Shown in pieces: positions 1-51,078 of a DNA stretch of 64,000 nucleotides. Every line of letters starts with the position of its first letter. Position 1 is the stretch's first letter. A model generated the notes under the pieces. That model was given only the letters and a program-made list of their open reading frames with translations, searched no databases and was not told the origin of the DNA. This stretch comes from Escherichia coli. Its GTDB lineage: Bacteria > Pseudomonadota > Gammaproteobacteria > Enterobacterales > Enterobacteriaceae. The stretch lies in assembly GCF_003334255.1 (NCBI RefSeq), contig NZ_QOWU01000013.1. The stretch is one strand, 5' to 3'. The translations under genes and the position numbers were made by a program.

Positions 1-76
1 ACGCGAGGCATCGTCTTAACGAGGCACCGAGGCGTCGCATTCTTCAGATGGTTCAACCCTTAAGTTAGCGCTTATG
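1..76. mobile_element. IS186 terminal segment (element continues beyond window start)
   Basis: Sequence ends ...GGTTCAACCCTTAAGTTAGCGCTTATG near 76, matching my recollection of the IS186 terminal inverted repeat; in K-12 an IS186 copy abuts the 3' side of dnaJ. Boundary is +/- a few bp; no transposase ORF lies inside the window. Confidence 0.55.
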
Positions 77-167
77 GGAGTGATCCCCGCCACTTTACAG
101 GTGCTCGCATATCTTCAACGCACCCTATTTTTACCCAGGCCTGCCCACGGGCAGGCTTTTGGGGAGG

Positions 168-1298
168 TTAGCGGGTCAGGTCGTCAAAAAACTTCTTCAC
201 ACCATCAAAGAAGCTCTTTGAGCGCGGGCTGTTGTGCTCGCCGGTTGGGCCACCGAAGCTTTCTTGCAGCTCTTGCAGCAGCTGTTTCTGCCTTTCGTTC
301 AGGCCTACCGGTGTTTCGACGACAACGCGGCACAGCAAATCACCCTGTGCGCCACCGCGGACAGACTTGACGCCTTTACCGCGCATACGGAATAGCTTAC
401 CGGTCTGGGTTTCGCCAGGCACTTTCAGTTTGACGCGACCATCAAGGGTCGGTACTTCGATTTCGCCACCCAGCGCCGCCATAGCGAAGTTGATCGGGAC
501 TTCGCAATACAGGTTGTTGCCTTCACGCTCGAAAATCGGGTGCTGTTTAACCTGAACCTGAACGTACAGATCGCCTGCCGGTGCGCCATGCTCGCCCGCT
601 TCACCTTCGCCCGCAAGACGGATGCGGTCTCCAGTGTCCACCCCTGCCGGGATTTTAACGGACAGCGTTTTGCTGCGCTCAACACGACCATGACCATGAC
701 ATTTGTTGCACGGATCTTTGATCAGCGTACCGCGGCCCTGACAGTGTGGACAGGTCTGCTGTACAGCGAAGAATCCCTGGCGCATCTGCACCTGACCAGA
801 ACCATGACAGGTCGGACAAGTCTGCGGCTGTGTACCTGGTTTTGCACCGCTACCGTGGCAAACGTCACACTCTTCCAGAGTCGGAATGCGGATCTCTTTG
901 GTCACGCCACGTACAGCTTCTTCGAGGGTGAGCTCCATGTTATAGCGTAAATCAGCACCGCGCGCCGCACGTTGACGACCACGTCCGCCGCCAAAAATAT
1001 CGCCGAAAACGTCACCAAAAATATCGCTGAAGTCTGCGCCGCCGCCAAAACCGCCGCCGCCCATGCCACCTTGCTCAAACGCAGCATGACCATACTGATC
1101 GTATGCCGCACGTTTTTGCGAGTCGGTCAGAACTTCATAAGCTTCCTTGATCTCTTTAAATTTCGCCTCGGCCTCTTTGTCACCCTGGTTACGGTCCGGG
1201 TGGTATTTCATGGCCAGGCGTTTGTAGGCCTTTCTGATTTCACGCTCTTCCGCTGTTTTGGAAACGCCTAAAATCTCGTAATAATCTTGCTTAGCCAT
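168..1298 (-). CDS. dnaJ: Chaperone DnaJ (Hsp40), 376 aa
   Basis: J-domain with HPD motif (KYHPDRN), Gly/Phe-rich linker, four CxxCxGxG zinc-finger repeats; start taken at [11 protein letters not shown] (ATG, window 1296-1298). ORF-track start at 1328 is an upstream GTG extension. Confidence 0.97.
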
Positions 1299-11732: not shown

Positions 11733-12665
11733 TTAGTTTTCCAGTACTCGTGCGCCCGCCGTATCCAGCCGGCAAATATGAACAAAACCTTCCTGATTTT
11801 GCAGGTAGTTCTTACCCAACCAGTCGGCAACGCGCTGGGCGGTTTCCGGCTTGTCACACAGAGCGAACAAGGTCGGGCCGGAGCCGGAGATACCGCTCGC
11901 TACCGCGCCGATTTCCGCGACCGCCTGCCGCGCCTGCCGGAAGCCTGGCAGTAACCGTTCACGGTAGGGTTCAGCGATAACATCTTTCATCAGCTTCGCG
12001 GCAAGCTCAGGCTGACGGGAATAGCAGGCGTGAATGAAGCCTGCCAGATGTCGCCCGTGCGCAATGCAATCCTGGCGGCGATACTGCGCCGGTAAAATAG
12101 CCCTGGCTTCTGCCGTCGAGACTTTAATCCCCGGATACGCCAGCACCCACAGCCACTCATCAAACCCTGGCACTTGCTGGCTGATGATGTCGTTTTCTTC
12201 GATCATCAACTGCATACCACCGAGAAAACACGGTGCCACGTTGTCGTAATGAATGCTGCCGGAGATACGGCCTTCCAGCTCGCCCATCAAAGCCAGCAAA
12301 CGAGTGTCATTAAGCGGCTTGCCGCAGTGTTCATTCATCGCCATCAGCGCCGCGACCACCGAACAGGCACTGGAGCCTAAGCCCGAACCGATCGGCATAT
12401 TCTTTTCCAGGGTCATCGCCACTGGAATTTGCTTACCCAGTTCCTGGCAAAAACGCTCCCAGCACTGATAAACGATATTTTCCCGTGGTTCTGACGGCAG
12501 CTTATCGGCAAAGCGTCCGAGGTTGTTGAGACTGAATGTCTCTGCCGCCTCAACCGTGACTACATCTCCGAGCAATGCACCATCAACAGGTGTCACCGCC
12601 GCCCCGAGCACATCAAACCCGACGCTCATATTGGCACTGGAAGCCGGGGCATAAACTTTAACCAT
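11733..12665 (-). CDS. thrB: Homoserine kinase, 310 aa
   Basis: GHMP-kinase motif [10 protein letters not shown]; stop/start adjacent to thrC (cat at 11730-11732). Confidence 0.97.
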
Positions 12666-16575: not shown

Positions 16576-16716
16576 TTATGTTGCTGTTAAAATGGTTAGG
16601 ATGACAGCCGTTTTTGACACTGTCGGGTCCTGAGGGAAAGTACCCACGACCAAGCTAATGATGTTGTTGACGTTGATGGAAAGTGCATCAAGAACGCAAT
16701 TACGTACTTTAGTCAT
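16576..16716 (-). CDS. yjjY: Small ORF YjjY, 46 aa (MTKVRNCVLDALSINVNNIISLVVGTFPQDPTVSKTAVILTILTAT)
   Basis: Translated by hand; corresponds to the annotated K-12 small ORF embedded antisense in the arcA upstream region. Evidence that it encodes a protein is weak. Confidence 0.4.
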   Translation of the reverse strand: MTKVRNCVLDALSINVNNIISLVVGTFPQDPTVSKTAVILTILTAT

Positions 16717-42440: not shown

Positions 42441-42862
42441 TGCCGGATACGGCCTACGGTTCGGCACAGACTTGTAGGCCTGATAAGACGCGTCAAGCGT
42501 CGCATCAGGCATTGTGCGCCAACTGCCGGATGCGGCGCGAACGCCTTATCCGGCCTACGGTTCGGCACAAACCTGTAGGCATGATAAGACGCGACAAGCG
42601 TCGCATCAGGCATTATGCGCCGACTGCCGGATGCGGCGTGAACGCCTTATCCGGCCTACGGTTCGGCACAGACTTGTAGGCATGATAAGACGCGACAAGC
42701 GTCGCATCAGGCATTGTGCGCCAACTGCCGGATGCGGCGTGAACGCCTTATCCGGCCTACGGTTCGGCACAAACCTGTAGGCATGATAAGACGCGTTAAG
42801 CGTCGCATCAGGCATTGTGCGCCAACTGCCGGATGCGGCGTGAACGCCTTATCCGGCCTACG
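42441..42862. repeat. REP/BIME cluster: about four tandem 101-bp units
   Basis: Motif CTACGGTTCGGCACA recurs at 42455, 42556, 42657 and 42758 (period 101 bp); each unit holds two inverted REP palindromes. Confidence 0.9.
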
Positions 42863-43637
42863 GCACGTTAAACAACGTATACGTGTTATTAAGCAACGCT
42901 TGCGCAATCTCATCCGCCGGTTCCCGGCGCAACTCGCAAAGCACGGCAAACACACGGGCAGCCTGCTCCGGGCGGTTAGGCTGCCCCTGAAAACCGTTGA
43001 GCGGCATATCCGGCGCGTCGGTTTCCAGCAATAACGATGCCAGCGGTAATTTTGCGATGACATCGCGGGTTTTACTGGCGCGTGGATAGGTGATAGTACC
43101 GCCTACGCCAATTTTGTAGCCCAGCTGTACAAACCGTTCGGCCTGTTGCAGGCTGCCGGAAAAACCGTGAACCACGCCAGTGCGCGGTAAATCGTGGCGT
43201 TTAAGATGCATCGCCAGTTTGTCGTGCGTGCGCCGTGAATGCAGGATCACCGGCAGATCGTAGCGTTTCGCCAGTTTCAGTTGTTCGTCGAGTAACCACT
43301 GCTGCCTCTCAAATTGCGGATCGTCGCCAAAGAGATCCAGACCGATCTCCCCCACCGCCACCACCTTCGCCGGACGCCTTTCCAGCGCCTGCTGTAGCTG
43401 CTCAAGAGACACATCGCTATGTTTTTCCAACATACCAGGATGCAAGCCCAATGCGGCATACAGCGGTTGATAATTTTCCGCTAATGCCAACACACGGGCA
43501 AAATTTTCCGCCTCTGTTGCCGGAACAATGATCTTGCCTACGCCCGCTTGTGCCGCGCGTTGCAGGCTGGCCTCTTCATCGCCACTAAACGGCGGGAAAT
43601 CAAAATGGCAGTGGGTGTCGATAAAACGGCAAATCAA
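42858..43637 (-). CDS. yjjV: TatD-family metal-dependent hydrolase YjjV, 259 aa
   Basis: MICRFIDTHCHFDFPPF (HxH metal-binding start); the last codons and TAG stop lie inside the terminal REP unit. Confidence 0.88.
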   Translation of the reverse strand: MICRFIDTHCHFDFPPFSGDEEASLQRAAQAGVGKIIVPATEAENFARVLALAENYQPLYAALGLHPGMLEKHSDVSLEQLQQALERRPAKVVAVGEIGLDLFGDDPQFERQQWLLDEQLKLAKRYDLPVILHSRRTHDKLAMHLKRHDLPRTGVVHGFSGSLQQAERFVQLGYKIGVGGTITYPRASKTRDVIAKLPLASLLLETDAPDMPLNGFQGQPNRPEQAARVFAVLCELRREPADEIAQALLNNTYTLFNVP

Positions 43638-49417: not shown

Positions 49418-50449
49418 ATGTCTGCATTTACCCCGGCAAGTGAAGTCTTGCTGCGTCACAGTGATGATTTCGAACAAAGCCGTATTCTGTTTGCCGGAGA
49501 CTTACAGGATGACCTGCCCGCGCGTTTAGATACCGCGGCCAGCCGTGCTCATACCCAGCAATTCCACCACTGGCAGGTATTAAGCCGCCAGATGGGGGAT
49601 AACGCCCGTTTCAGTCTGGTCGCCACGGCGGATGACGTCGCAGATTGCGATACGCTGATTTACTACTGGCCGAAGAACAAACCGGAAGCCCAGTTCCAGT
49701 TGATGAATTTACTTTCTCTGCTGCCAGTGGGGACAGATATTTTTGTCGTTGGCGAGAACCGCAGCGGCGTGCGCAGCGCCGAGCAGATGCTGGCAGATTA
49801 TGCGCCGTTGAATAAAGTCGACAGCGCTCGTCGCTGTGGCCTCTATTTTGGTCGTCTGGAAAAACAGCCGGTATTTGATGCGGAGAAATTCTGGGGCGAA
49901 TACAGCGTCGATGGCCTGACGGTCAAAACGCTGCCTGGCGTGTTTAGCCGCGACGGTCTGGATGTCGGTAGCCAGTTGCTGCTCTCGACGTTAACTCCGC
50001 ACACGAAAGGTAAAGTGCTGGATGTCGGCTGTGGCGCGGGCGTGCTTTCAGTTGCCTTTGCGCGCCATTCGCCGAAAATTCGTCTCACCTTGTGCGATGT
50101 CTCTGCCCCGGCGGTAGAAGCCAGCCGCGCAACACTTGCGGCCAACGGTGTTGAAGGTGAAGTCTTTGCCAGCAACGTCTTTTCCGAGGTGAAAGGTCGT
50201 TTTGATATGATCATCTCCAACCCGCCGTTCCACGATGGGATGCAAACCAGCCTGGATGCGGCGCAAACGCTGATTCGCGGTGCGGTGCGTCATCTTAATA
50301 GCGGCGGCGAGCTGCGAATTGTAGCGAACGCCTTCCTGCCTTATCCGGACGTGCTGGATGAGACATTTGGCTTCCACGAAGTGATCGCGCAAACAGGGCG
50401 CTTCAAGGTGTATCGCGCCATTATGACCCGCCAGGCGAAGAAAGGTTAA
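49418..50449 (+). CDS. rsmC: 16S rRNA (guanine1207-N2)-methyltransferase RsmC, 343 aa
   Basis: SAM-binding motif [11 protein letters not shown] and NPPFH catalytic motif. Confidence 0.92.
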
Positions 50450-50467
50450 TTATCTCGCCGAATACCG

Positions 50468-50560
<93 letters not shown>

Positions 50561-50647
50561 ATCTGCCCCCGCATGCATACCAAACCTGCACGCTAGTTTC
50601 CTGATGGACATTTTTCCAGCAATTACACCTCTGTCGATAATTAACTA

Positions 50648-50675
50648 TTGACGAAAAGCTGAAAACCACTAGAAT
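50648..50675 (+). promoter_or_regulatory. tRNA-Leu promoter (stringent type)
   Basis: -35 TTGACG (50648-50653), 16-bp spacer, -10 TAGAAT (50670-50675), then GC-rich discriminator GCGCCTCC, typical of stable-RNA promoters. Confidence 0.65.
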
Positions 50676-50716
50676 GCGCCTCCGTGGTAGCAATTCTTTT
50701 TAAGAATTGATGGTAT

Positions 50717-50803
50717 GCGAAGGTGGCGGAATTGGTAGACGCGCTAGCTTCAGGTGTTAGTGTCCTTACGGACGTGGGGGTTCAAGTCCCCCCCCTCGCA
50801 CCA
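50717..50803 (+). tRNA. leuQ/P/V: tRNA-Leu (anticodon CAG), 87 nt, single copy
   Basis: GCGAAGGTGGCGGAATTGGTAGACGCGCTAGCTTCAGGTGTTAGTGTCCTTACGGACGTGGGGGTTCAAGTCCCCCCCCTCGCACCA: cloverleaf with long variable arm, anticodon loop TTCAGGT, encoded CCA end. Confidence 0.96.
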
Positions 50804-50841
50804 ATTATCTTTACTTCCTTTCTTGTTTCTTCCTTGATTTT

Positions 50842-51078
50842 TCATCCCTGATTCAAATTCATTATCATCAGCATGATGCCAGCAATAAGTGCCAGGCACG
50901 ATGGTAGCAAAATGTAATGCCGCAACTGTTTGTGATACAGCATCATCGGCGTCAATACTAATCCCATCAGAATGACAATCCGCCACTGATCTGACGATAA
51001 ATCCGCATACATCAGCCCTGCAATCAGCAATCCCGGCAGCAACACTCCCCAGCCACTGCCCAGCGTACGTTGCAACAT
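50842..51078 (-). CDS. yjjZ: Small membrane protein YjjZ, 78 aa
   Basis: MLQRTLGSGWGVLLPGLLIAGLMYADL... hydrophobic small protein; the ORF-track product (115 aa) starts 37 codons upstream of the K-12 annotated start. Confidence 0.6.
   Translation of the reverse strand: MLQRTLGSGWGVLLPGLLIAGLMYADLSSDQWRIVILMGLVLTPMMLYHKQLRHYILLPSCLALIAGIMLMIMNLNQG

Follow-up and report, generated by a model that had tools for sequence, protein, structure and literature searches.

In Escherichia coli K-12 the genes leuQ, leuP and leuV are transcribed as a single polycistronic transcript, which RNase P cuts to single pre-tRNAs and which ends at a Rho-dependent terminator after leuV (PMC2190699). A natural one-copy allele of the same locus exists in E. 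coli O157:H7, where the Sanger-finished genome of strain Sakai has one gene, annotated leuQ (ECs_R0127). At another locus, the su3/supF work is said to have involved unequal recombination between the tandem tRNA-Tyr genes tyrT-tyrV. For strain OV2, loss of a single tyr tRNA gene together with RtT has been reported (PMC12584984). Here the leuQ-leuP-leuV locus of a 64-kb stretch of E. coli DNA, referred to below as the window, was compared with these systems.

One tRNA-Leu(CAG) gene between rsmC and yjjZ

The sole tRNA detected by ARAGORN in the window is an 87-nt class II tRNA-Leu with anticodon CAG, in agreement with the original prediction, and its sequence is identical to that of K-12 leuQ, leuV and leuT. 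It is the C form of the gene, with C at tRNA position 48 (window position 50764). The features of the locus and of the left end of the window are listed in Table 1. The distance of 38 bp that had been predicted between the tRNA end and the yjjZ stop was found in the open reading frame list and in the annotation, and the promoter expected ahead of the tRNA was recovered as a strong sigma-70 match (10 of 12 consensus positions) that is the same in MG1655. The discriminator GCGCCTCC directly behind it is typical of stringently controlled stable-RNA promoters, and going by this sequence the tRNA operon may be under stringent control; a literature search on the leuV promoter returned nothing relevant. 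No intrinsic terminator was found on the + strand in the 38-bp spacer past the tRNA. The locus is flanked by ...GATGGTAT on the leader side of the tRNA and by ATTATCTTT... downstream. The REP-type repeats upstream of the promoter differ between lineages, and O157:H7 genomes lose alignment there, which is why a 901-nt query was only 93% covered in these genomes.

Table 1. Positions of features in the window
Feature	Position	Strand	Description	Basis
IS186 right end	1..76		23-bp terminal repeat at 54-76	MG1655 match, empty-site genomes, G1/2 annotation
rsmC	49418..50449	+	upstream neighbour	open reading frame list, annotation of identical loci
REP-type palindromic repeats	~50450-50600		between rsmC and tRNA promoter	
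Promoter of tRNA operon	50648..50675	+	-35 TTGACG, 16-nt spacer, -10 TAGAAT	consensus scan
GC-rich discriminator	50676-50683		GCGCCTCC, directly after -10	sequence
Identical stretch	50716..50804		89 nt (1+87+1 nt) identical around leuQ and leuV in three-copy genomes	alignment, identical-stretch computation
tRNA-Leu(CAG), single copy	50717..50803	+	87 nt	ARAGORN, MG1655 alignment, identity to leuT
tRNA-yjjZ spacer	50804..50841	+	38 bp; first part of the unstructured Rho-dependent terminator region that follows leuV in K-12 (PMC2190699)	
yjjZ (DUF1435)	50842..51078	-	downstream neighbour, convergent with tRNA	open reading frame list, annotation

Between yjjZ and rsmC, MG1655 has leuV, leuP and leuQ and the window has one gene. 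Pairwise alignment of the two gave one clean gap of 236 bp (87+28+87+34) with identical flanks, and a BLAST comparison of the entire window with the corresponding part of MG1655 returned two blocks free of gaps, shifted by 236 bp relative to each other, and 8 mismatches. The displacement of about 236 bp past rsmC, which the original prediction had drawn from reference coordinates, is thereby exact. What is missing is leuQ, 28 nt, leuP and 34 nt, so that both spacers of the three-copy array (AAAACCACGTTGATATTGCTCGCACTGG and AACGAGGCGATATCAAAAAAAGTAAGATGACTGT) and the leuP variant (GTGTTCTTACGG) are gone. [quoted passage not shown] Transcription and maturation of a one-gene version would be expected to proceed likewise, with about one third of the output of the locus.

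The claim that K-12 holds three identical tandem copies was right in number, as seen in MG1655, and wrong as to identity, since K-12 leuP has T at tRNA position 48 where leuQ and leuV have C. The position lies in the variable arm, and the leuP T variant is kept in K-12 and in all four wild relatives discussed below. The 'identical triplet' accordingly consists of two sequence forms, and the single leuP base both shapes the assembly graph and marks the copies that survive a deletion. The junction of the missing 236 bp lies somewhere inside the 89-nt identical stretch, which is the finest placement possible.

Source of the window and copy number among relatives

The K-12 parentage assumed at the outset did not stand. 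Over the whole window 8 SNPs separate it from MG1655, and the wild German commensal G1/2 is closer, with 2 SNPs over 39 kb and about 2 more in the first 25 kb as estimated from the bit score. Within the compared 39 kb G1/2 has every allele that parts the window from MG1655, and in the first 25 kb the best matches are wild ST10-type isolates. The K-12 strains MC1061 and ME8067 were rejected as sources, as both match 40-64 kb in one piece and lack the three SNPs that the window has there. Judged by these comparisons, the source of the window is a wild K-12-like strain and not K-12. Two of the 8 SNPs change proteins, namely YaaJ A83T and CreA S9Y (window 7753 and 21572), and each of these alleles was found in many wild-strain contigs. 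The ettA SNP at 28140 is synonymous and is the sole SNP of the window absent from all relatives compared.

The copy state was determined in the four closest relatives that were fetched (G1/2, G5, LR-21-1 and NCTC9008), which differ from the window by 2-7 SNPs each over 39 kb. In each of them the array has three copies, spaced as in K-12, and includes the leuP variant. The one-copy state is accordingly a derived one, confined to the sequence of the window. The possibility, raised with the original prediction, that the parent genome also has one copy thus found no support among them. No complete E. coli genome out of 5,426 matches the window exactly, which fits a draft assembly as its source.

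The locus had also been described as the only structural deviation from the reference, and this was contradicted by the left end of the window, which is the end of an IS186 element inverted relative to IS186A of MG1655. Bases 1-53 correspond to IS186 interior sequence (MG1655 16653-16705), in the orientation opposite to that of IS186A next to dnaJ, and an inverted IS186 transposase was confirmed in the annotation of G1/2. K-12-type genomes match the window only from base 54 and empty-site genomes from base 76. IS186 in the orientation of the window was present in 924 complete genomes (window 1-200 matched, at least 80% coverage). The window start thus lies 76-77 nt inside a multi-copy element. 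An overhang of 76-77 nt at a repeat is the expected end of a SPAdes contig assembled with k=77, and this contig-end signature suggests that the window is the first 64 kb of a short-read draft contig assembled with k of about 77. By a rough estimate, a window start placed at random would fall at such an IS186 offset about once in several thousand cases. The same IS186 edge is also where draft contigs that share the CreA or YaaJ allele begin, either 82 nt further out than the window, which fits trimming, or 49 nt further in, which fits k=127.

Copy number at the locus was scored among the 5,426 complete genomes with E-value thresholds set so strictly that a match had to be full-length and unbroken to pass. 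Counts based on coverage were dropped, as pieces of one-, two- and three-copy arrays were joined inconsistently. Three copies in the K-12 form were found in 4,960 genomes and one copy in 425, and two copies were found with the 34-nt spacer kept in 22 and with the 28-nt spacer kept in 14, with the array form of 5 genomes not accounted for. An array of three copies with both K-12 spacers and the leuP variant is thus present in 91% of the genomes, at a flank identity of 95-100%. The O157:H7 haplotype accounts for about two thirds of the one-copy genomes, judging by 41 of 60 evenly spaced rows. Among approximately 489 K-12-like complete genomes only 4 have one copy, these being MC1061 (CP195014), ME8067, OV2 and N18-04097.

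One-copy arrays outside the O157:H7 haplotype number about 130, far more than the 36 two-copy arrays. Neighbouring copies are expected to recombine at least as often as outer ones. Collapse of a graph loop predicts one-copy outputs only, and some of the 'complete' hybrid assemblies may therefore carry the artefact. Within O157:H7, strain TR01 (NZ_CP033605.1) has a two-copy array with the 28-nt spacer and other genomes have one copy; as a spacer cannot be regenerated from one copy, TR01 represents a basal lineage, a recombinant or an assembly difference.

Other repeat differences were seen in the OV2 assembly (CP195020). Its only copy at the locus (12158-12243 of the fetched piece) has 7 C instead of 8 C in the run of the T-arm, owing either to a homopolymer error of Ion Torrent/MinION sequencing or to a true indel. 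The C run of the T-arm is described as a strong indel hotspot (PMC8510543). Window 42447-42863, in the yjjV-yjjW intergenic region, consists of tandem repeats of about 101 bp with approximately 95% identity (BLAST self-hits), and the OV2 assembly is about 202 bp, or two repeat units, shorter there.

Origin of the one-copy state

The original prediction set a real loss against a collapse of the repeat during assembly and made no choice between them. These are the right two alternatives, and the evidence favours the second. The single copy is probably the result of short-read assembly collapse, with the source genome most likely carrying the normal leuQ-leuP-leuV triplet, and the one-copy state of the window most likely does not reflect the biology of the organism. 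The 89-nt stretch shared by leuQ and leuV exceeds a k of about 77 and would become one shared node of the assembly graph. With leuP one central base apart, the series leuQ-spacer-leuP-spacer-leuV would form a side loop of 236 bp on this node, and an assembler could walk from the leader through the shared tRNA node to the downstream region, skipping the loop. The output of such a walk would be one copy in the C form, 236 bp shorter and with perfect flanks, exactly as in the window, and in the particular assembly behind the window the loop was presumably skipped.

The k-mer content of the locus is consistent with this route. At k of 90 or below, all k-mers of the one-copy locus are present in the three-copy G1/2, and novel junction k-mers arise only from k=91. 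The exact repeat is accordingly longer than the k of about 77 suggested by the contig end, and the shortened path contains no novel k-mers. An explicit k=77 graph built from the three-copy locus and leuT branched at the tRNA ends, with two in-branch and two out-branch nodes that vanished at k of 91 or above, and the window sequence was a valid walk in the k=77 graph that skips the 236-bp loop. Short-read drafts do fail at this array, as seen in two contigs that stop 4 nt short of it.

The same shortened form was also found in a strain that has the full array in another assembly. MC1061 has one copy in the Unicycler assembly CP195014. A second MC1061 assembly, CP169569, was made independently, differs by 5 SNPs and has three copies, as does DH10B, a descendant of MC1061. 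OV2 has the identical one-copy form in an unrelated pedigree and comes from the same pipeline as MC1061 CP195014. Unicycler hybrids are built from a SPAdes graph. Both MC1061 (CP195014) and OV2 are Unicycler hybrids of Ion Torrent and MinION reads (PMC12584984), and ME8067 is a Unicycler hybrid of NextSeq 150-bp and MinION reads for which only 81 tRNA genes were reported (PMC6013617). No assembly method was found for N18-04097, the fourth K-12-like one-copy genome, on which a literature search returned nothing. An effect of the pipeline is a far likelier explanation than two rare deletions arising independently within one small project. The discordance of MC1061 could in principle reflect a stock-specific deletion.

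Several observations nevertheless weigh against collapse. Reads of 150 nt often let SPAdes thread an 89-nt repeat, and none of the four draft contigs sampled had collapsed: two kept three copies and two ended 4 nt before the array. Both k=77 and the draft origin are read from a single contig-end signature. Deletion between 87-nt direct repeats is mechanistically easy, and the natural one-copy state is real, being found in Sakai and in 425 of the 5,426 complete genomes. Against this, once the audited K-12-like cases are discounted, the prior for real loss in such a background is at most about 1%, and it would be outweighed if only a few percent of k=77 drafts collapsed the array.

A real and recent leuQ x leuV deletion in a wild K-12-like commensal is a possible but distinctly less likely origin. 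It would have removed leuQ/leuP and both spacers in one step of 236 bp, by RecA-dependent unequal sister-chromatid exchange or by RecA-independent replication slippage, and would have left one hybrid gene under an intact promoter. The number of tRNA-Leu(CAG) genes, leuT included, would then have fallen from 4 to 2, as calculated in the original prediction. Recombination would leave a junction inside the perfect 89-nt direct repeat and unaltered flanks, and this is what the window shows, but collapse would give the same result. The surviving copy is also the C form expected of a leuQ x leuV exchange, and natural alleles with one copy (Sakai and the 425 complete genomes) and with two copies (36 complete genomes) show that such states occur. 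Moreover, the locus tolerates loss: deletion of all three leuQPV genes is viable, although costly in rich medium (PMC9981150), leuQPV is not among the essential tRNA transcription units (PMC11480407), and frameshifts in leuQPV genes were associated with faster colony expansion (bioRxiv 10.1101/355404). Loss of one gene of the tandem tyrT-tyrV pair, as reported for OV2 (PMC12584984), is a comparable event. However, 0 of the 4 closest relatives fetched have one copy, so that the loss would have to be private to the isolate. The K-12-like one-copy cases that were audited point to artefact, in keeping with the prior of 1% or less in such a background, and the contig-end signature is that of an assembly unable to tell one copy from three by k-mers alone.

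An ancestral single copy, in a lineage that never had the triplet and with expansion in K-12 and others, agrees with the presence of one-copy genomes in several lineages but is highly improbable and effectively refuted, as the array, its spacers and the leuP variant are common to 91% of E. coli genomes, three copies are present in strains that differ from the window by 2-7 SNPs over 39 kb, and the spacers cannot be regenerated from a single copy.

Significance and comparison with known systems

The one-copy observation is confirmed; it is of an ordinary kind and serves as a caution about assemblies. If the loss were real, it would be another case of the known copy-number polymorphism of tandem tRNA genes, for which O157:H7 already provides a fixed one-copy allele. 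CUG is the most used codon, and the gene dosage of the tRNA that decodes it would be halved; as evidence on the degree of tRNA-Leu(CAG) redundancy required by E. coli, the loss would carry modest weight. A slow-growth niche that selects for reduced translational capacity could perhaps be involved. The methodological result is the more useful one, in that public assemblies can silently report one copy of leuQPV. The array is one tandem array in the window with a repeat unit (87-89 nt) longer than the common k=77, and one-copy reports of this kind come from at least one 'complete' Unicycler genome, that of MC1061 (CP195014), a strain with three copies in another assembly. False losses would be counted in surveys of tRNA copy number, models of codon usage and strain comparisons that draw on such assemblies.

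Compared with the K-12 leuQ-leuP-leuV operon (tRNA-Leu1), the window is alike in locus, promoter, leader, downstream region and tRNA sequence and differs in having one gene instead of three, with neither the spacers nor the leuP variant. The tyrT-tyrV locus resembles what a real leuQPV loss would be, as a tandem pair of class II tRNA genes whose copy number changes by recombination between the repeats, but it is another locus with an experimentally proven event, whereas the leuQPV event here is putative. The O157:H7 allele has the same architecture as the window, with one tRNA-Leu(CAG) gene between rsmC and yjjZ. It is, however, clade-wide, sits in a diverged background (97.4% flank identity) and is found in many independent assemblies, whereas the one-copy form of the window is a single K-12-like sequence with three-copy relatives. 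The window also resembles tandem-repeat collapse in de Bruijn graphs, as in SPAdes and Unicycler hybrids. With the assembler and k presumed for the window, its repeat is longer than k and a one-copy walk is valid, and the same one-copy form is found in the Unicycler assemblies of MC1061, OV2 and ME8067.
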